Positions 11,375 through 20,462 are shown, numbered from the stretch's first letter. The stretch: DNA of 64,000 nucleotides from Candidatus Poseidoniaceae archaeon (GCA_028353405.1 JAOMOG010000007.1:755-64754), one strand, 5' to 3'. Notes: generated from the letters alone by a model not told the origin. Numbers and translations: made by a program.

Positions 11375-12655
11375 ATGCGAACCATATTGTTGGACCTTGG
11401 GCCGATGGCCCACCTCTCTGGAAATGGTTCTTTGAAGGGTGCAGATATTTCTGATTCTGAGTTATTGACAAGTCCTGCTGGAAAGGGAATTGTTATAGAA
11501 GACGGCATAATTGTAAAAATTGATGATTCAAAATCTCTAGAAGATGAGTATGGTAGTGAAAATATCCACCACTCTAAATCAGATAACTTGGAAAATAAAA
11601 TTTATTCATTGAAAGGGAAGGCAATAATTCCAGGTCTAGTAGATGCGCATACTCATTTGTTGTGGTCAGGAGATCGCTCTAGAGAAGTGTCGTGGCGTCA
11701 GCAGGGGCATTCTTATTCCGATATCGCTTCAATGGGTGGAGGTATAGTTTCCACAGTTGAAGCAACACGTAATTCAACACAAGCGGAATTGGTAGAATTG
11801 GGTTATAAGCGCTTGAGGGGGGCTTTTAGAAATGGTTCAACTCACCTAGAAGTAAAAAGTGGATATGGATTATCTACTGAATCTGAATTAAAGTTAATCG
11901 CCGCAGCGAATGAACTCTCTAGAATGAATCACCTCCCGAGTATTGACCAAACTTGGTTAGGTGCGCATGCTACTCCGAAGGGTTACTCGAGGAGTGATTA
12001 CGTAGAAGAAATATTGAGTGAACAATTACCTGCTGTATTAGAACAAGGACTTGCCCGTTCTGCTGATGTATTTTGTGAGCCAGGGTGGTTTACAATTGAA
12101 GAGAGCGAAGACATTCTAAAACAATCTAAACAAGGAGGTCTCGATTTGAGAATGCATATTGACGAGTTTACCGATGGCGGCGGTGGTGACTTAGCTGCTG
12201 AATTAGCAGTAACCAGTGCAGATCATTCCCATTACACTTCCACGGATGCTAGGATAAAAATGGAAGCGAACGGTGTCAATTGCGGATTTTTGCCAGGGAC
12301 ACCATACTCAATGGGAGAGCAATGGCCTGATTTTAACGAAATCACTGAACAACAATTTACTTGGTCTGTTGCTACAGATTTTAATCCCAATTGTCAAACA
12401 TTGAGTTTACCCTTTATCGCATCCATACTCGTACAACGTTGTGCAGTTTCACCTTTAGCAGCGCTAGTGGCTTGCTCACGTAATCCTGCTCAAACAACAC
12501 CACACCCATCGGGTGCGCGACACGGAGTTATTGAAGTGGGTGCAGTTGCAAACTTGAATGTCGTAGATGGGCCATGGTGGCAGGCTTGGTGCCAACAACC
12601 TGGAGATTCACCATTCCATGCTACTATGATTGAAGGTGATTTGATTTTCCATTAA
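11375..12655 (+). CDS. hutI: Imidazolonepropionase (HutI), amidohydrolase superfamily
   Basis: PGLVDAHTHL is the metal-binding HxH motif. Typical amidohydrolase His and Asp positions follow. The size is ~420 aa. Confidence 0.8.
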   Translation: MRTILLDLGPMAHLSGNGSLKGADISDSELLTSPAGKGIVIEDGIIVKIDDSKSLEDEYGSENIHHSKSDNLENKIYSLKGKAIIPGLVDAHTHLLWSGDRSREVSWRQQGHSYSDIASMGGGIVSTVEATRNSTQAELVELGYKRLRGAFRNGSTHLEVKSGYGLSTESELKLIAAANELSRMNHLPSIDQTWLGAHATPKGYSRSDYVEEILSEQLPAVLEQGLARSADVFCEPGWFTIEESEDILKQSKQGGLDLRMHIDEFTDGGGGDLAAELAVTSADHSHYTSTDARIKMEANGVNCGFLPGTPYSMGEQWPDFNEITEQQFTWSVATDFNPNCQTLSLPFIASILVQRCAVSPLAALVACSRNPAQTTPHPSGARHGVIEVGAVANLNVVDGPWWQAWCQQPGDSPFHATMIEGDLIFH

Positions 12656-12738
12656 TTCAACACTATTGAATTATGAATAAATATATTTCAAAAAACAAAT
12701 AATATTAAATTAGTATAATAAATAATAAGGTGTAAATC

Positions 12739-13074
12739 ATGGTTGAAGCGATAATGGAAACTGTAGTTTGTTCACCAGCTCAGGGCAAAGACGCAAGATT
12801 TCTACGAATGCTCAATACGCGTCAAGAATTCAAAAGACAACAATCTGGTTGTCTTGCAGCATGGTATGCTAAATCTAGTGATGGTGAACCTTTGCTTCTT
12901 GTCCAGAGTGTTTTCGCCTCTAGGCAAGATTGGATCAATATTTCAAATGCAATTATTGAAACTCTTGATTCGCGAGATGGTGGATTAGATTCTTGCTTAC
13001 TCGGCCCTCCACTAGTAGGTGTATTTACAATCGAAACTGAAGATTTACAACTTAATCTTGAACAATCGCAATAA
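12739..13074 (+). CDS. Hypothetical small protein (111 aa), possibly a ferredoxin-like ABM/Dabb fold
   Basis: A GGTG RBS lies 8 nt upstream of the ATG. The sequence and size are loosely compatible with antibiotic-biosynthesis-monooxygenase-like proteins. The call is weak. Confidence 0.35.
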   Translation: MVEAIMETVVCSPAQGKDARFLRMLNTRQEFKRQQSGCLAAWYAKSSDGEPLLLVQSVFASRQDWINISNAIIETLDSRDGGLDSCLLGPPLVGVFTIETEDLQLNLEQSQ

Positions 13075-13095
13075 TCACTCTCAAACCGTGTAGTA

Positions 13096-13127
13096 TAATG
13101 TCGTATAAGGTAAGTTATACGACATTA
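13096..13127. repeat. Perfect 13-bp inverted repeat (TAATGTCGTATAA / TTATACGACATTA) with a 6-nt spacer
   Basis: Read directly from the sequence, about 22 nt after the stop of the ORF at 12739..13074. Confidence 0.7.
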
Positions 13128-13525
13128 GATTTATCTGGCAGCATGGAATAACTATCCTGGGAGTAAAAAATGGTGCGCAGTAGTGCTTTTAGCAAATAAT
13201 TGATGAGATGAATATTCAAAGAATTGCAAATATGCCCCTCTAATCCCCCCCTCAGAGGGTGCGTTATTAGAGAAATTCTGAAATTCTCAAAAAGGATGTC
13301 GAATAGTAGGGTTCAAGTCAATGATATGTCTGGAACATACTGAGTGAGATGGCAGTAGTTGAAGGATTTTGTTTGAAGTGTAAAACATATGGACCGATTA
13401 AAGATGGCCAATTATTCAAAATGTCTAATGGACGAACTAGAATGGGGGGTCTTTGCTCCCAACCTGGTTGTACTGGTAAGATTTCTAAGATCGTCAGCTG
13501 AATCGGAAATAGCATACCGAATCCG

Positions 13526-13534
13526 TTTAATATA
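13526..13534 (+). promoter_or_regulatory. Candidate archaeal TATA box (TTTAATATA) about 26-34 nt upstream of tRNA-Val
   Basis: An AT-rich TATA-like octamer at the expected distance from the mature tRNA 5' end. Confidence 0.4.
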
Positions 13535-13559
13535 GAGCCTAAGTGGCTCACTTTACCTA

Positions 13560-13635
13560 GGGCTCGTGGTCTAGGGGTTATGACGTCGCCTTGACATGGC
13601 GAAGATCGAGAGTTCAATTCTCTCCGAGCCCACCA
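13560..13635 (+). tRNA. tRNA-Val (anticodon GAC) with encoded 3' CCA
   Basis: Hand-folded cloverleaf. Acceptor GGGCTCG/CGAGCCC. D-arm with GG. Anticodon stem TCGCC/GGCGA with loop TTGACAT, giving U33 and anticodon GAC. T-arm GAGAG-TTCAATT-CTCTC. Discriminator A, then CCA. Confidence 0.85.
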
Positions 13636-13730
13636 GTATTTATTCTCATGTTTATGATTTCCTTGCTTTTAATTTCTAAAGACATTGTATTGTAATTGCT
13701 ATTCAGAAAGTGTTTATTGTTAAATCAGTA

Positions 13731-14102
13731 TTACTTAATATTTGTTAATTCCTCTGGATCGGGTAAGACTAATTCATCAGGGTCGACTCTACTCATTGGT
13801 CTTTCATCCTCTTCATCTACGGTGAAATCAGTTGAACCACCTTCCCAGTCCGTCACAGAATCTGATTCTTCAAACGACTCCACAGGAATCTGGTCTGCTC
13901 CAGGTGCTAACGAATATGAAGCTGGATCTATCGGTTGCGTTGGCGCTTCTTGCGAAGGCGGAGGTGCTTCTCTCTCTTCTAAATGGGCGCTAGAATGGAA
14001 TGTGCCACATTCAGCACATCGAACGCTACCAGACTTCTCAATACAACCACAAACAGGGCAAAATGATGTGCCGCGCAATGCATTTATTGGGTCGTCGGAC
14101 AT
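13731..14102 (-). CDS. Small zinc-ribbon protein with a hyper-acidic C-terminal tail
   Basis: CPVCGCIEKSGSVRCAECGTF is a CxxC...CxxC ribbon. The tail is D/E/P-rich. The start is taken at MSDDP, because the track start at 14126 overlaps the upstream gene. It resembles the N-terminal ribbons of the adjacent large protein. Confidence 0.5.
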   Translation of the reverse strand: MSDDPINALRGTSFCPVCGCIEKSGSVRCAECGTFHSSAHLEEREAPPPSQEAPTQPIDPASYSLAPGADQIPVESFEESDSVTDWEGGSTDFTVDEEDERPMSRVDPDELVLPDPEELTNIK

Positions 14103-14106
14103 GTAT

Positions 14107-15876
14107 TTACTCCAAGAACATCTCATCTTGGTATCCGGTTATTTCATCACCAGTACCGTCTTCCTTGATTGTAACAAGTTCGTCCTCGTCATCAAACTCA
14201 ATTATGGTTCCAAAGAATTCTTCCTCATCAACGGTGAGTCCAATATGAGATCCGATGTCAATATCATCCTCTTCGTCATCTGAATCATCTCCTTCTTCGT
14301 CATCTGAGTCATCTTCTTCGTCACCGGAATCATCATCTCCTTCATCTTCAGAGATTTCTTCATCGCTAACAGAATCATCCTCTACTTCTTCATTAGAGTC
14401 TGAATCCCCTTCATCTTCGTCATCCGATGCTTCCTTTGCATCTTCAGTATCAGATTCAACTTCTTTCATAGCCCTGACACGTGCTCTCCAACCTTTGGCT
14501 AATACAAGGTGTGTAAACATAGAACCACCCATTGCAATAGCTCCGATCAGAATAAAGATAATACCATCTGTATAGAATCCCTTAGGCATGGATGATGCTC
14601 CATTTTCACCAGAGAATGGTGTTAATGAATTAGCACACCCATCGGCTTGAACATCACTGTCACAAGAGTAAATTTCTCCTTCATTAATTCCTTCAAAGCC
14701 CATTCCATACTTGCTATCTAGTTCGATTGACCCTCCAGAACCGTCTACTGGTCCAAGATATCCGTTTACTACCCAAGCAAGAATAAAGATAAACAATGCT
14801 CCGTGGATTAGTGGCCACCAAACATCATTCCATTTCTTTGACATCATAGAAGATTGTATTGCTGAAGGGAATTCTTTAGGAGGCTTTTCTGAGTCTTCAT
14901 CTTCTTGAGACTCAATAGCAGAAATGAATTCGATTATGTCAATATTTCCATCTTTATCTGAATCCAAAGACTCAATGAAATCAGAAATACTTGTTTGGCT
15001 AATCTCTTCATCCTCTAGTAGTTCTCCAATGGTATTTGCAAGTTCTTCACTGCTAACATATTTGTCACCATCTTCATCTAATACATGGAAAATGTCTGCT
15101 GGATTAGCCTCTTTCTCATCCATGACATTAATCAACATTTCAAGGATATCAGCGGGATTATGTTGCTTTGGAGCAGATTCGCCATCTGCTTCGGAATCAT
15201 CTTCTTCAGTTTCTTCTTCAGAATCGTCTTCTTCTTCAGAATCGTCTTCTTCTTCTGAATCATCATCTTCTTCAGTTTCTTCTTCTTCTTCTGAATCATC
15301 ATCTTCTTCAGTTTCTACTTCAGAATCATCATCTTCTTCGGTTTCTACTTCAGTTTCTACTTCGGAATCATCTTCTTTTTCGTCAGCAGAAGATACGTAT
15401 TCTGCGCCAGTAACGGATGTTTCTAATTCCGCTAAGTCTATTTTTCCATCACCGTCAACATCTATTTGCTCAATCAATCTTTCAATTTGTGATGGAGGGA
15501 GATCTGCTAGATTTAGGCTCAAAAGACCCTGTCGTAATTCATCAGAGTCGATCATTCCGTCTCCGTTAGTATCGAATTTCTCAAATAATGAGGATATGCT
15601 TAAGCCAGTGTTAGCTAGCCATTTTCGTAATACATCCATCACATCATCAGCAACAAAAATAACACCGCATTTTACACAACTAGATGATTCTAGAGGTACT
15701 AGAGTTCCACAAGCGCCACATTCACCTAGAGCATCTTCGGAAAGTCCCGAAAACTTGATTTTACATTCTGAACATTCGCTAGAATCACTTGGAATTACCG
15801 CACGGCAATTCCCACATTCTGCCATTGAGATTTCATCATTCTCTGTCTCGGTCATTGTCACACCTATATATGCCAA
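14107..15876 (-). CDS. Membrane-anchored hyper-acidic protein with two N-terminal zinc ribbons, four EF-hand-like Ca-binding loops and two TM helices
   Basis: Zinc ribbons: CGNCRAV...CSECK and CGACGT...CVKCG. EF-hand loops: DTNGDGMIDSDE, DVDGDGKIDLAE, DEDGDKYVSSEE and DSDKDGNIDIIE. TM segments: WWPLIHGALFIFILAWVVNGY and GIIFILIGAIAMGGSMF. There are long poly-D/E/S repeat blocks. Confidence 0.6.
   Translation of the reverse strand: MAYIGVTMTETENDEISMAECGNCRAVIPSDSSECSECKIKFSGLSEDALGECGACGTLVPLESSSCVKCGVIFVADDVMDVLRKWLANTGLSISSLFEKFDTNGDGMIDSDELRQGLLSLNLADLPPSQIERLIEQIDVDGDGKIDLAELETSVTGAEYVSSADEKEDDSEVETEVETEEDDDSEVETEEDDDSEEEEETEEDDDSEEEDDSEEEDDSEEETEEDDSEADGESAPKQHNPADILEMLINVMDEKEANPADIFHVLDEDGDKYVSSEELANTIGELLEDEEISQTSISDFIESLDSDKDGNIDIIEFISAIESQEDEDSEKPPKEFPSAIQSSMMSKKWNDVWWPLIHGALFIFILAWVVNGYLGPVDGSGGSIELDSKYGMGFEGINEGEIYSCDSDVQADGCANSLTPFSGENGASSMPKGFYTDGIIFILIGAIAMGGSMFTHLVLAKGWRARVRAMKEVESDTEDAKEASDDEDEGDSDSNEEVEDDSVSDEEISEDEGDDDSGDEEDDSDDEEGDDSDDEEDDIDIGSHIGLTVDEEEFFGTIIEFDDEDELVTIKEDGTGDEITGYQDEMFLE
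15190..15400. repeat. Imperfect in-frame tandem repeats (~18-36 nt units) encoding the (E/D)-rich SEVETEEDDD repeats
   Basis: Visible repetition of units ttcagaatcgtcttcttc and tctgaatcatcatcttcttcagtttct(a/t)c within the CDS at 14107..15876. Confidence 0.6.
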
Positions 15877-15968
15877 ACAAACAATAGATATAATGCTTGA
15901 TGGAGTTTACTGTGACACATAGTAAATAGAGCGGTTACTTCATAGTATCATTTAAGGGAGGCTGGCTG

Positions 15969-16874
15969 ATGGAACAAGGACGACTATATACTGCAGAATT
16001 ATCCGACAATACTGCCTTATATCCTTGGCTCGACAAACAATTAGAAGTCTCACAGCAACAAGTATTGTTGTTTAGCCGCCAACCCCACAAACGTTTGTTA
16101 GAATACATTGATTTGGCCAAGGTTGAATCATATTGGCTATCTGACCGTACCACTGCTGGCGCAATTGCACCTAGTCTGGAAAAAATAGCTCACATTATCA
16201 CTTCTAAATTACCTAATGACCATGGATTGATAGTCATAGAAGGTCTTGAGTGGCTAGTGTCTTTACACGGCGAGGATGCTGTGCTGGCATTTGTTCGGCA
16301 AATTAGAGATGAATCGTATAAAAGTTCTTGGAAGATCATATTTCCGATAAATTGCTTAGTGTTTGATTCGGTTTGGTTAGCGCGATTGAGGAGGGAGGCA
16401 CCAGAATCAGATATTTTCTCACAAATGCAAGATGAAATTATTGAGTTCTATGAAGAGAAATCTGATACAAAAACCGATTCCAGTGAAGCAATAAAGATTC
16501 ATAATTTTCAGCAAATGCCTGGTGAAGATATTGAATTAGATACTAGAGAAGATGGATCTCCGAGGCTGGTAATGTTGACCCGATTACCTCGTAATGGATT
16601 TAGTAATTCAATCCTCACTCGCCGTATTTTACAGTGGAGAAGAATGGGTCTAGATGTTTCTGAAGTTGAACCCGCACTTACGATTATGGATGAAAACAAG
16701 GCTCACCAATTATATTCATCTGTTGAGGAGAAGGTTAGAAGGGCTGTTCAATTAGAAAACCACTTAGAAGCAATTTCCGATAATATCTCAGCCACTGAAT
16801 TAACTACTGCTAGATTCAGAATTAGGCAACTGACTGGCCTAGATGAACTTGAAAAATGGTTACTTACCTTGTGA
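15969..16874 (+). CDS. DUF835-like domain protein (archaeal), function unknown
   Basis: The core HGLIVIEGLEWLVSLHGEDAVLAFVRQIRDES...IIFPINCLVFD resembles the conserved block of DUF835. A C-terminal coiled-coil-like region follows. Confidence 0.4.
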   Translation: MEQGRLYTAELSDNTALYPWLDKQLEVSQQQVLLFSRQPHKRLLEYIDLAKVESYWLSDRTTAGAIAPSLEKIAHIITSKLPNDHGLIVIEGLEWLVSLHGEDAVLAFVRQIRDESYKSSWKIIFPINCLVFDSVWLARLRREAPESDIFSQMQDEIIEFYEEKSDTKTDSSEAIKIHNFQQMPGEDIELDTREDGSPRLVMLTRLPRNGFSNSILTRRILQWRRMGLDVSEVEPALTIMDENKAHQLYSSVEEKVRRAVQLENHLEAISDNISATELTTARFRIRQLTGLDELEKWLLTL

Positions 16875-18428
16875 TTAACGAGGTAGCCTGCCACATTCTG
16901 CTTCAATTCTAGCAAGCCAACCACCTTGCCACAACTGGTTAGCAATTTGTTTCAACTCTTTGCTTGTACTTCTGTCTCCATCAAGTGGTGGTGAAATAAC
17001 TCTAACTCTTTGCTTCAATGAGCGAACATGATCTGCAGGTTGTAGTTGTTCAAATTCTAATGCTTCACACGCGACAAACAATTCACATGCCAAAACCTCT
17101 GATAATCGCTCAGTAGCAAGCAGAAGATTCCAACAAGCAGTAGCACCCATGCTAACATGATCTTCTTGCCCTGCTGAGGTACTAGTAGAGAATGCTGAAC
17201 GTGGCATTGCATGACCATGTAACTCGGCCAAAGATGCACCTGCAACATATTGGACAATCATCAATCCCGATTCAAGACCAGAATTCTTTGCTAAGAACGC
17301 TGGCAGGTTACTCCTTGCTGGGTCGAGGATTTGGTCAATTCTTCGTTCACTAATAGATGCTAATTCAAAAAGTGCATGGGCCATGGAATCAGCACATAAT
17401 GCCAAAACTTCTCCATGAAAATTACCCTGTGAAATAACTTCGTGTGGCCCGGGGTTGGAAGGATCTGGAAATACCAATGGATTGTCTGTCGCACTATTCA
17501 ATTCTATATCCAATGTTTCTTGCAGTTGCATAAACCTCTGTAAAACAGCACCATGGACTTGCGGAGCGCATCTAAATGAATAAGCATCTTGAACTTGTTC
17601 ACAATGAATATGAGATTGAAGAATTGGAGAATCTTTCATTATTCTTCGTATCCGTGATGCTGTTGTCAATTGGCCGATGTGAGGGCGAGCCAGGTGGACT
17701 CTTTCATCAGCCGGCATCACACTTCCTTTCCTAGCTTCTAATGAACAACACATGATTATATCAGCGAGGGGTAATAATTGGCTAAGCCTTTGTTCAGCAG
17801 CAACTAAAAGAGATAACATTTGACTAGTTCCATTGATTAGAGATAATCCATCCTTAGCTCTCAATTGAATACCGATTAAGCCATTGGCGAGTAAGGCATC
17901 TCTAGTAGGGCCAACGCCTGTTTCTGTCAATACCTCGCCCTCTCCGATTAGTGAAAGAGCCATGTGTGATAATGGTGCTAAATCTCCACTAGCACCCAAA
18001 CTACCTATGCGTGGTATCGCTGGACAAATATCGTTATTGATGAAAGCAATTAGTTGATTAATAACATCGGGGTGTACTCCTGAACATCCCTTTGCAAGAG
18101 AATTAGCTCTTGTAACCATCATTGCCCTAACCAATTCCTTTGGCATGAACTCTCCCAATCCAGTGGCGTGTGAACGGATAAGATTTCTTTGTAAGTCTGC
18201 TAAATCTTCAACAGATATTCTTTCCTTGACCAATGCACCGAATCCTGTATTGATTCCGTAAACAGTTTCACCTCTCTCCAGTATTCCATCAATCACAGAT
18301 CGTGCTGCATTAATTTTGACCCATGAATCTTGAGGAATGGCAACAGATGCCTTTCCTTCAGCCACCATTTGCACTTCAGAAGAAGACAGAGTTTCTCCGT
18401 CGAGATAGATTGTATTGTCTTCTCCCAT
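16875..18428 (-). CDS. hutH: Histidine ammonia-lyase (HutH)
   Basis: The ASG triad in GASGDLAPLSH is the MIO cofactor-forming motif. The size of 517 aa is typical. Confidence 0.9.
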   Translation of the reverse strand: MGEDNTIYLDGETLSSSEVQMVAEGKASVAIPQDSWVKINAARSVIDGILERGETVYGINTGFGALVKERISVEDLADLQRNLIRSHATGLGEFMPKELVRAMMVTRANSLAKGCSGVHPDVINQLIAFINNDICPAIPRIGSLGASGDLAPLSHMALSLIGEGEVLTETGVGPTRDALLANGLIGIQLRAKDGLSLINGTSQMLSLLVAAEQRLSQLLPLADIIMCCSLEARKGSVMPADERVHLARPHIGQLTTASRIRRIMKDSPILQSHIHCEQVQDAYSFRCAPQVHGAVLQRFMQLQETLDIELNSATDNPLVFPDPSNPGPHEVISQGNFHGEVLALCADSMAHALFELASISERRIDQILDPARSNLPAFLAKNSGLESGLMIVQYVAGASLAELHGHAMPRSAFSTSTSAGQEDHVSMGATACWNLLLATERLSEVLACELFVACEALEFEQLQPADHVRSLKQRVRVISPPLDGDRSTSKELKQIANQLWQGGWLARIEAECGRLPR

Positions 18429-18440
18429 ATTACCACCACA

Positions 18441-20462
18441 TCAGATTGAGTTAATTATATCGTCATCAACAATATTTGGCAAAGTCACTTGTAAATCCGG
18501 TTGTGATTGCATTGCTCTTTTTGCAGCAAAAATAGCACCATCATTACGAGCCCAAGCCCTTCTCGCTACACCATTATTGACGTCCCAGTGTAGCATTGAT
18601 TGTAATCGGTTTTCAGAATCATCAGTTCCATCTAGCATCAAACCAAAGCCACCGTTTACAACTTCGCCCCAGCCAACACCTCCACCATTGTGCAAACTAA
18701 CCCAAGTTGCGCCTCTAAAGGAATCGCCTACGAAGTTTTGAACCGCCATATCAGCAGTAAACATTGAACCGTCAGAAATATTTGCAGTTTCTCTGTAAGG
18801 GGAGTCGGTTCCCGAAACATCGTGATGATCTCTACCCAATACTATTGGACCCGAGATTCTCCCTGTTGAGATGGCCTTATTCATTGCTGACGCTATTCTT
18901 CTCCTTCCTTCATCATCTGCGTAGAGAATACGCGCTTGAGAGCCTACAACCATATTATTTGACTCGGCTTGCTCAATCCAGCGAATATTATCTCTCATCT
19001 GTTGTTGAATCTCTATTGGAGACTCCAATATCATTTCAGAAAGAACTTCACAGGCAATTGCATCAGATTCCGCTAAATCCTGCGGACTCCCTGAGCAGCA
19101 AACCCATCTATATGGTCCAAAGCCATAGTCAAAGCACATCGGGCCCATGATATCTTCAACGTATGACGGATATTTGAAACCGCCATCCGCATTCATAACA
19201 TTTGCACCGGCTCTACTAGCTTCGAGAAGGAATGCATTGCCATAATCCCAAAAGTACATTCCTTCATCTGTCATTTTGTTGATTGCATTAGCATGACGAA
19301 TCAAACTATTTTTTACTTCATCAGCAAACTTCTGAGGCTGCTGCGACATCATTAGTGATGCAACTTCGTAATCAAATCCTACGGGTAAATATCCTCCTTG
19401 CCATGGATTGTGTAGTGAAGTTTGGTCACTTCCTAAATCGACCTTAACCTCTCTTTCAACTAACCTCTCCCAAAGAGTGACTATATTTCCTACATATCCA
19501 ATAGAAATTGCTTCCTTAGTTTGGACTGCCTGAAGCATTTTGTCAATTGCATCATCAACATCATCAGCAACGGTACTTAGCCAACCTTGCTGATGCCTCT
19601 TCTTAGCCGCATGTGGATTAACTTCAGCGATGATGCAGGCGGCACCTGCAATCACAGCCGCTTTAGCTTGAGCCCCAGACATACCCCCTAAGCCGGATGT
19701 CACGAAAGAAACCCCTTCTAAGCCTTCATCGCCAGAAATTCCTAATTTATCTCTAGCTGCATTGAGTAAAGTAATTGTAGTTCCATGAACTATTCCTTGA
19801 GGTCCAATGTACATGTAAGATCCAGCGGTCATTTGACCATATTGACTTACACCTAAGGCATTCATCCTTTCATAATCTTCAGCAGATGAATGATTTGGAA
19901 TCACCATACCGTTTGTGACTATTGCTCTTGGAGCACTTGGGCTTGAAGGAAATAGTCCAAGAGGGTGACCTGAATACATTACCAATGTTTGATGTTCAGA
20001 CATCTGCGACAGATATTTCATCACAATTCGATATTGTGCCCAATTTTGGAAAACTGCTCCGTTGCCGCCATAAGTTATCAATTCATGAGGAAATTGGGCT
20101 ACCATTGGATCTAAATTATTTTGAATCATCAACATTATCGCGGCTGCTTGTTTGCATTTCGCTGGATAATAGTCGATAGGATATGCTCTCATTTCATACT
20201 CAGTAGGACGGTATCGCCACATTATCACCCTACCAAAAGTATTCAATTCTTGACTAAACTCTTTTGCGAGTGTTGCATGTAAATGCTTTGGAAAATATCT
20301 CAATGCATTTCTAATAGCCAATTGCTTCTCTTGATGGGACAATACTTGCCGCCTTGCAGGAGCATGGTCGACGCCATCATCCCAAGGAGGCATTTCTGGC
20401 AACTCATCGGGAATGCCAGAGACGAGGCAAGTGGCAAGGATAGAGGCGACCTCTCCCGACAT
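18441..20462 (-). CDS. hutU: Urocanate hydratase (urocanase, HutU), long 673-aa form
   Basis: NAD-binding GLGGMSGAQ. It carries conserved urocanase blocks: LRYFP, MRAYPIDYYP, YGGNGAVFQNW and VMYSGHPLGLFP. It is ~110 aa longer than typical bacterial HutU. Confidence 0.85.
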   Translation of the reverse strand: MSGEVASILATCLVSGIPDELPEMPPWDDGVDHAPARRQVLSHQEKQLAIRNALRYFPKHLHATLAKEFSQELNTFGRVIMWRYRPTEYEMRAYPIDYYPAKCKQAAAIMLMIQNNLDPMVAQFPHELITYGGNGAVFQNWAQYRIVMKYLSQMSEHQTLVMYSGHPLGLFPSSPSAPRAIVTNGMVIPNHSSAEDYERMNALGVSQYGQMTAGSYMYIGPQGIVHGTTITLLNAARDKLGISGDEGLEGVSFVTSGLGGMSGAQAKAAVIAGAACIIAEVNPHAAKKRHQQGWLSTVADDVDDAIDKMLQAVQTKEAISIGYVGNIVTLWERLVEREVKVDLGSDQTSLHNPWQGGYLPVGFDYEVASLMMSQQPQKFADEVKNSLIRHANAINKMTDEGMYFWDYGNAFLLEASRAGANVMNADGGFKYPSYVEDIMGPMCFDYGFGPYRWVCCSGSPQDLAESDAIACEVLSEMILESPIEIQQQMRDNIRWIEQAESNNMVVGSQARILYADDEGRRRIASAMNKAISTGRISGPIVLGRDHHDVSGTDSPYRETANISDGSMFTADMAVQNFVGDSFRGATWVSLHNGGGVGWGEVVNGGFGLMLDGTDDSENRLQSMLHWDVNNGVARRAWARNDGAIFAAKRAMQSQPDLQVTLPNIVDDDIINSI

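Follow-up and report, generated by a model that had tools for sequence, protein, structure and literature searches.

Ca2+ signaling has been characterized extensively in eukaryotes, and examples are beginning to appear in a few bacteria, EfhP of Pseudomonas aeruginosa among them; our literature search found no description of Ca2+ signaling in archaea. Here, we analyzed a two-gene locus in a stretch of 64,000 nucleotides (nt) from a Candidatus Poseidoniaceae archaeon (GCA_028353405.1 JAOMOG010000007.1:755-64754), referred to as the window, in whose positions all coordinates are given. The larger gene encodes a 582-amino-acid (aa) membrane protein with four canonical EF-hand loops, and the smaller a 123-aa zinc-ribbon protein. 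Poseidoniales (Marine Group II) are among the most abundant planktonic archaea, and calcium-binding domains have been noted, in a passing remark, in gene modules specific to subgroups of the order (PMC9258230). That remark was the sole mention that we found, and the search returned no study describing this family of EF-hand membrane proteins. EF-hand annotation of such proteins is already automatic; the noteworthy addition is the architecture and its conservation across the order.

Among described systems, calmodulin shares four canonical 12-residue loops in two EF-hand pairs. It is, however, a free 148-aa protein with a central helix, whereas here the lobes belong to a 582-aa membrane protein and are separated by a 78-aa acidic linker. 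Given this size, this linker, and a sequence identity of 16-19%, the protein is not calmodulin proper; published work derives eukaryotic calmodulin from bacteria and not from archaea (PMC7016017). EfhP (PA4107) is likewise prokaryotic and membrane-anchored, with canonical EF-hands, a likeness in idea and by description. It is much smaller and is not known to have zinc ribbons, polyacidic linkers, transmembrane (TM) hairpin with conserved loop, or C-terminal barrel. Experiments have established that EfhP binds Ca2+ specifically and mediates Ca2+ regulation, and it is described as having two EF-hands only, against four here (PMC9132961, PMC4053335, PMC11559002). Long D/E-rich tracts beside Ca2+-binding modules also occur in calsequestrin, the calreticulin C-domain, and proteins of the SPARC and CREC types, but these are eukaryotic and luminal or secreted and have other folds, whereas the arms of the present protein appear to be cytoplasmic and its linkers are poorly conserved spacers. 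Its N terminus, with two tandem CxxC-x10-CxxC ribbons, resembles the DZR modules of prokaryotic membrane and signaling proteins.

Four canonical EF-hands between zinc ribbons and a beta-barrel

The large gene occupies positions 14107..15855 on the minus strand, with its ATG at 15855 and its stop codon at 14107-14109, and was delimited from the open reading frame (ORF) and an alignment of homologues. Residue numbers follow the 582-aa protein unless stated otherwise, and every segment of the protein given below lies on that strand.

The four EF-hand loops are arranged in two pairs. Pair 1, with the helix that precedes it, spans residues 67-150 (15406..15657), modeled by AlphaFold2 (AF2) with a predicted local distance difference test (pLDDT) score of 79-87; it contains loop 1, DTNGDGMIDSDE (from residue 95, 15538-15573), and loop 2, DVDGDGKIDLAE (from residue 132, 15427-15462), and the stretch LADLPPSQ between these loops was invariant in the alignment. 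Pair 2, with the helix ahead of it, spans residues 229-320 (14896..15171; recognized by Pfam and modeled at pLDDT 85-89) and contains loop 3, DEDGDKYVSSEE (from residue 260, 15043-15078), which has Lys at position 6, and loop 4, DSDKDGNIDIIE (from residue 298, 14929-14964). All four loops fit the 12-residue pattern, in which positions 1, 3, 5, and 12 supply oxygen ligands, position 8 is hydrophobic, and position 6 is Gly or another tolerated residue. A PROSITE-type EF-loop pattern run across the 64 kb in six frames matched these four only.

Profile searches agreed with the pattern. Pfam EF-hand_7 (PF13499) matched at 71.6 bits (E 6.8e-20; cutoff 30), its best stretch being 96-153 in the numbering of a longer, 589-aa form, and EF-hand_6 (PF13405) and EF-hand_1 (PF00036) matched at 66.8 bits (cutoff 25) and 62.4 bits (cutoff 25.4), in four stretches each. 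A domain-level match to SPARC_Ca_bdg (E 1.2e-8) was to a family that is itself an EF-hand pair. Composition-matched shuffles contained a mean of 0.04 loop matches and none of 20,000 gave four, so the loops are not products of the acidic composition. Helices flanked every loop in the AF2 model (pLDDT 79-89), and Foldseek aligned the two pairs to the two lobes, N and C, of numerous calmodulin structures (E ~2e-6 at the identity given above). The four EF-hands are genuine and canonical, with a predicted role in Ca2+ binding. The original prediction had named all four, and its reservation that they might be chance matches within low-complexity acidic sequence is excluded by the significant profile hits.

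Ahead of pair 1 lies a double zinc ribbon (residues 11-66, 15658..15825), in which CxxC-x10-CxxC occurs twice; the Cys of the two predicted N-terminal ribbons were confirmed, all eight being invariant in the alignment of homologues. Against a cutoff of 27.3 bits, Pfam DZR (PF12773) scored 23.7 for the 582-aa protein itself and 27.3, 27.6, 30.6, and 33.6 for the orthologues P0261, P0283, P0284, and P0294, respectively.

Polyacidic linker 1 (residues 151-228, 15172..15405) separates the two EF-hand pairs. It is 78 aa long, 67% D/E, with a net charge of -51 and pLDDT <50, and its coding DNA is built of imperfect tandem repeats (18, 36, and 42 nt; 15185-15382); it matches the acidic tract of about 70 residues that had been expected after the EF-hand region. 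Polyacidic linker 2 (residues 473-530, 14266..14439; 66% D/E, net charge -37, disordered), with coding repeats at 14263-14398, had been read as a second acidic tail. The tract is present, but it does not end the protein, and the conserved beta-barrel beyond it had been overlooked. Overall, D and E make up 32% of the 582-aa protein versus ~13% in neighboring genes. Between near-identical strains, linker length differed by ~30-40 aa through repeat slippage. SnoRNA-like Rfam matches within the acidic repeats were below threshold and were set aside as probable composition artifacts.

The barrel occupies residues 531-582 (14110..14265) and adopts the five-stranded SH3/Tudor-type fold, which is of the protein- or nucleic-acid-binding type; the aromatics F548, F554, Y575, and F580 were conserved in the alignment. 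It differs from Tudor, KOW, and Sm-like barrels in being unusually acidic (net charge -18) and in having no significant sequence match to the Tudor, KOW, or LSM families. The best Pfam E values among homologues were 3.9e-4 for LSM12 (one homologue), 7e-4 for RimP-SH3, and 0.06 for KOW, the protein's own barrel fragment reached 13.7 bits (E 0.052; cutoff 29.5), and the best PDB profile match was LSm5 (E 0.62).

Membrane hairpin and topology

The two TM helices of the original prediction coincided with hydrophobic segments and with AF2 helices. TM1 (residues 340-366, 14758..14838; Kyte-Doolittle segment 344-371, AF2 helix 340-367) has an invariant KxW..WPLIH at its putatively cytoplasmic end, and TM2 (residues 427-454, 14494..14577; Kyte-Doolittle segment 429-453, AF2 helix 427-478) is directly followed by a basic segment, GWRARxKAMKEV. 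The earlier description had the modules of this acidic architecture right but missed the conserved loop between the helices (residues 367-426, 14578..14757). This loop, 60 aa with invariant columns, carries the motif DGSGG...YxCD..Q...C.NSLTP...SSMP, with two invariant Cys and ~20 invariant positions, and had no Pfam match; its folding may need a partner, oligomerization, or a disulfide bond. An ion channel with the loop lining the pore was considered and rejected: the loop is hydrophilic and acidic, it holds two invariant Cys, and an orthologue without it (P0294) keeps the architecture.

No hydrophobic segment or signal peptide was found in the ~340 highly charged residues ahead of the hairpin. 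The hairpin is flanked by KK before TM1 and GWRARVRAMK after TM2, and the loop has a net charge of -8. In homologues, an extra canonical EF-hand pair occurs either within linker 1, before TM1, or within linker 2, after TM2, which argues that both arms lie on one side of the membrane. From the basic flanks, the acidic loop, the eight zinc-ligand Cys, the missing N-terminal hydrophobic segment, and the same-side arms, we infer that the EF-hands, linkers, and barrel are cytoplasmic and the Cys-containing loop is outside.

Distribution and conservation of the modules

The large protein had at least 1754 homologues, several under the name [quoted passage not shown]. A scan of 185,579 genomes, one per species, yielded 155 confirmed stretches, of which 80 loci were kept. 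Except for two short contigs, all 155 were labeled Poseidoniales or unclassified Euryarchaeota/Methanobacteriota metagenome-assembled genomes (MAGs). Those two, in a Salipiger bermudensis MAG (L069, 4.9 kb) and a Rhodobiaceae MAG (L070, 5.2 kb), carry the archaeal hutH–DUF835–EF-hand–small-gene block and are probably binning contamination of public assemblies. Residues 326-582, comprising the hairpin, linker 2, and the barrel, gave 90 matches among 1.84 billion representative proteins; P0322 and P0328 from the representatives search were discarded as spurious matches to unrelated repeat proteins. By both searches the architecture is lineage specific, and more distant full-length hits retain the plan of DZR, EF-hands, two TM helices, and barrel.

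Conservation was uneven along the protein. As mean pairwise identity among 37 homologues, the barrel (0.79), EF pair 1 (0.78), the post-TM2 segment (0.78), and the zinc ribbons (0.75) ranked highest, all four without length variation, followed by TM1 (0.72, 26-27 aa), the TM loop (0.66, 58-65 aa), and EF pair 2 (0.52, 87-97 aa), with linker 2 (0.37, 44-127 aa) and linker 1 (0.32, 40-235 aa) lowest. Since the globular parts are conserved beyond their metal ligands while the linkers are free to vary, the pattern fits flexible tethers that join modules with specific binding roles. Orthologues carried between 3 and 7 EF-hand loops (seven in P0109) through insertion of whole EF-hand pairs, which lay in linker 2 in P0015, P0029, and P0046 and in linker 1 in P0035, P0042, P0065, P0069, and P0075.

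Two conserved modules without a name are defined here, the Cys-containing TM loop and the acidic SH3-fold barrel. The loop recurs in P0278 and P0300 (loci L092 and L093), basic proteins of 609-639 aa with two TM-loop-TM copies but neither EF-hands nor zinc ribbons, where its motif reads NG.GG...Y.CD..Q..C.N..P...MP.G.Y.D; because of this recurrence, we regard it as an independent domain outside Pfam.

A two-gene operon with its own promoter

The longest ORFs at the pair are 14107..15876 (589 aa) and 13731..14126 (131 aa), both on the minus strand. The first was the gene model of the original prediction, and the frame stands, but the start does not: the homologue alignment and a Shine-Dalgarno-like AGGTG (15861-15865), 5 nt upstream of the ATG at 15855, place it there and not at the TTG at 15876, hence 582 aa. 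That TTG falls between the ATG and a TATA box at 15888-15894, ~33 nt 5' of the ATG, and an exact-sequence lookup of the 589-aa form had no match, the protein not being on record in that form. The promoter and leader (15856..15902, minus strand) combine a sequence like a transcription factor B recognition element and TATA box (C.AT.AA..ATTATAT) with AGGTG, and these columns reached 80% conservation or more when 83 distinct DUF835/EF-hand intergenic regions were aligned; the pair has its own conserved promoter. A scan for sigma-70 promoters and terminators was uninformative for an archaeal host.

The small gene (13731..14102, minus strand; 123 aa) was delimited from its ORF and from gene calls in relatives, where gene callers placed a 120-125-aa gene at this position. 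Its ATG at 14102 lies 4 nt past the large-gene stop (TAA-ATAC-ATG), and a GGAG sits ahead of it within the last codons of the large gene. Together the two genes form a two-gene operon. They are also inseparable: in L089 and L090, loci of 35%-identity orthologues, a gene of 99-103 aa whose ribbon and motifs are the same begins 0-6 nt downstream.

The 123-aa protein has an N-terminal ribbon, CPVCGC..G..RC.ECGTFH, that is invariant in its family, and the motifs EER, IDPxxYS, P.E.F, W.GGSTDF, and LP are invariant in its acidic tail. The family comprised 121 clusters of ~120 aa, the named members being almost all Poseidoniales or Thermoplasmatota, and no Pfam family matched. A similar layout had led to the proposal that the small gene is a truncated paralogue of the large one. 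BLASTP aligned only 21 aa of zinc ribbon (E 0.049), an hhalign profile-profile comparison covered 20 columns at 11.7% probability, and the tails did not align; with the similarity confined to ~20 residues of a generic zinc ribbon, paralogy is not demonstrated. A classical calmodulin-target motif in this protein was likewise rejected, since its conserved motifs are acidic and Gly-rich and not basic amphipathic helices.

Placement in the core genome

Altogether, 88 related loci were fetched, and gene order was judged wherever each contig reaches. The order hutU–hutH–DUF835 (divergent)–EF-hand–small gene–tRNA-Val(GAC)–50-aa gene–ABM-like–hutI–Kae1 was found in all 88, including orthologues at 35-40% identity. 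The tRNA-Val(GAC) gene (13560..13635, plus strand; ARAGORN, and Rfam tRNA at 66 bits) kept this position in almost every related locus long enough to include it. The sole rearrangement seen was an inversion of the tRNA gene together with the 50-aa gene, in L051 and L052. In the window, from ~11375 to 20462, the hut genes are split by the block, with hutU and hutH on one side and hutI on the other, as in all relatives examined.

The original prediction had placed the pair at the 3' side of the tRNA gene and took it for possible accessory DNA. The tRNA gene is there, but the pair is convergent with it on the opposite strand, and a 485-bp tract (13075..13559) that had been called noncoding contains the conserved 50-aa gene. 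An accessory, possibly mobile insertion at tRNA-Val, made up of the large gene and a truncated paralogue, would accord with the distance of only 95 nt from the tRNA 3' end to the small gene and with the CxxC-x10-CxxC ribbon and acidic tail common to both proteins. Set against this are the unchanging gene order and an ordinary composition: G+C was flat at 0.39-0.41 at the pair (around 0.40, in a window ranging from ~0.35 to 0.47), G+C at third codon positions was 0.26 and 0.33 in the two genes (window range 0.22-0.36), and synonymous codon-usage log-likelihood z-scores of +2.6 and -0.4 were rated ordinary. The 28-nt tRNA 3' end has no second copy in the window, even allowing 3 mismatches, and none of the five flanking ORFs matched an integrase in Pfam or NCBIfam scans. 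Synteny in 88 of 88 loci together with unremarkable composition refutes the accessory reading, to which we attach almost no probability. The pair is core, vertically inherited DNA of Marine Group II and for that reason is not to be pursued as a mobile element.

Putative function and alternatives

A putative Ca2+-sensing or -buffering membrane scaffold, as first suggested, is the most reasonable functional reading of this protein. More specifically, and at somewhat less than even odds, we favor a calmodulin-like Ca2+ switch or adaptor that is specific to Poseidoniales, tethered to the membrane, and turned toward the cytoplasm. The two-helix hairpin would anchor the protein, leaving both long arms in the cytoplasm; a rise in cytoplasmic Ca2+ would load the four canonical loops, and the EF lobes, in changing conformation, would capture or let go of partners kept close to the membrane. 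As further, fixed docking sites the protein would have its zinc ribbons and C-terminal barrel, and the acidic linkers would serve as flexible tethers, possibly also as weak cation binders. The co-expressed 123-aa protein and the DUF835 protein, whose gene is transcribed divergently, are candidates for such partners. A fuller arrangement, in which the split calmodulin-like switch, its 123-aa partner, and the DUF835 protein form a Poseidoniales Ca2+ second-messenger module whose loop couples to the cell surface, strikes us as unlikely; if true, it would represent an uncharacterized Ca2+ signaling pathway that arose independently in archaea.

Several observations weigh against a switch. It gives no role to the conserved TM loop, which AF2 modeled poorly (pLDDT 36-40) and which is absent from the distant orthologue P0294, where all else is retained. 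Position 6 of loop 3 is Gly in most of the more distant homologues and Lys here. Classical calmodulin targets are basic and amphipathic, unlike the motifs of the small protein, and the adjacency of the DUF835 and EF-hand genes is inseparable from the synteny of the equally invariant hut neighborhood.

Other functions can be drawn from the same features. The linkers and EF-hands might chiefly take up Ca2+ or Mg2+ at the inner membrane face, as a high-capacity cation buffer much as calsequestrin or calreticulin's acidic tail does, or else form an electrostatic, polyanionic brush, with sensing and partner switching secondary. The ~135 residues of D/E/S linkers have a net charge of about -88, and their acidity was kept in every homologue despite drift in sequence and length; moreover, seawater, at ~10 mM Ca2+, exerts a constant inward Ca2+ pressure on cells. 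A buffer, however, has no need of indel-free ribbons, an invariant linker between EF-hands, a conserved TM loop, a 79%-identical barrel, or a co-expressed partner, and the roughly six-fold range in the length of linker 1 indicates that capacity is not tightly selected. With no calsequestrin- or calreticulin-like fold or Pfam hit for the 582-aa protein either, we consider a mainly buffering role improbable. A doubtful alternative of another kind is a constitutive structural tether whose EF-hands are permanently metal loaded, Ca2+ not being a signal: the TM loop would hold an envelope feature, and the ribbons and barrel would hold a cytoplasmic structure, for instance the division, chromosome, ribosome, or archaellum machinery. 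A membrane anchor followed by a long disordered linker and a terminal binding domain recalls bacterial ZipA and similar tethers; docking is a typical role of both zinc ribbons and SH3/Tudor/KOW/Sm-like barrels; the TM loop with its two invariant Cys is reused in other membrane proteins; and the gene belongs to the core genome and has a conserved promoter of its own. Yet throughout the order all four loops keep the full canonical set of Ca2+ ligands, and homologues have more canonical pairs in addition, which points to selection on metal binding itself, and no link to a cytoskeletal or envelope gene was seen within the neighborhood.

Least probable of these functions, and in our view very unlikely, is an outward-facing surface protein whose EF-hands and acidic arms bind seawater Ca2+ and form an acidic coat. 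Marine and halophilic archaea commonly have acidic surface proteins that bind Ca2+, and there was weak Pfam likeness to SPARC and dockerin-type extracellular Ca2+ modules, which reflects the shared EF-hand-like loops. Against an outward orientation, the protein has no signal peptide, the eight invariant zinc-ribbon Cys would meet oxic seawater, basic residues flank the hairpin on the side of the arms, and the TM loop is acidic. Returning to the proposed switch or adaptor, the order-wide conservation, synteny, own promoter, canonical loops, and conserved docking modules make the locus a concrete candidate Ca2+-responsive system in an uncultured, globally abundant archaeal lineage.

Barrel relatives, neighboring genes, and other observations

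P0276, a 1361-aa protein (L091, 8001-12086), has a barrel copy at residues ~940-992 with ~82% identity by our own count, an E/A-rich acidic linker ahead of it, and a metallophosphoesterase-like region after it (GDxH, GDxxD, and GNHE, recognized by eye). Large ORFs on one strand, most of them lacking a Pfam hit, make up the 41-kb L091 contig; one, of 2490 aa, has guanylate-kinase and DUF5754 domains and matched SET faintly. In appearance this contig is viral or mobile, and the barrel of P0276 may be a captured host docking domain. Of 82 pattern matches to the barrel in an IMG/VR scan, none was confirmed, and a BFVD fold search returned generic small SH3-like phage proteins only, none at E <=0.001.

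The DUF835 gene (15969..16874, plus strand; Pfam DUF835 E 2.7e-14) encodes a 301-aa, inactivated KaiC-like protein and was always adjacent to and divergent from the EF-hand gene wherever the contig reaches. Published work places DUF835, as an iKaiC domain, among the output domains of archaeal response regulators (PMC5847659). This neighbor had no meaningful match in a sequence search of the PDB, and its residues ~200-301 (..ILQWRRMGLDVSEVE.. followed by predicted helices) matched nothing in Pfam or PDB; a WR.MGLD motif in the protein recurs in the distant orthologous locus L090.

The 50-aa gene (13349..13501, plus strand), identified as an ORF and called as a gene in L001, encodes a CxxC...CxxC ribbon and lies 58 nt 5' of tRNA-Val on the same strand, always adjoining it. 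Its product was 62-100% identical across Poseidoniales loci (tblastn), more conserved than its neighbors, with a weak match to DUF5679 (E 1.3e-3). An Rfam scan of 12900-16100 returned only the tRNA above threshold. Further upstream, 22 nt past the stop of the ABM-like gene, a hairpin at 13096-13127 (plus strand) with a 13-bp stem, TAATGTCGTATAA...TTATACGACATTA, may be a terminator or a binding site.

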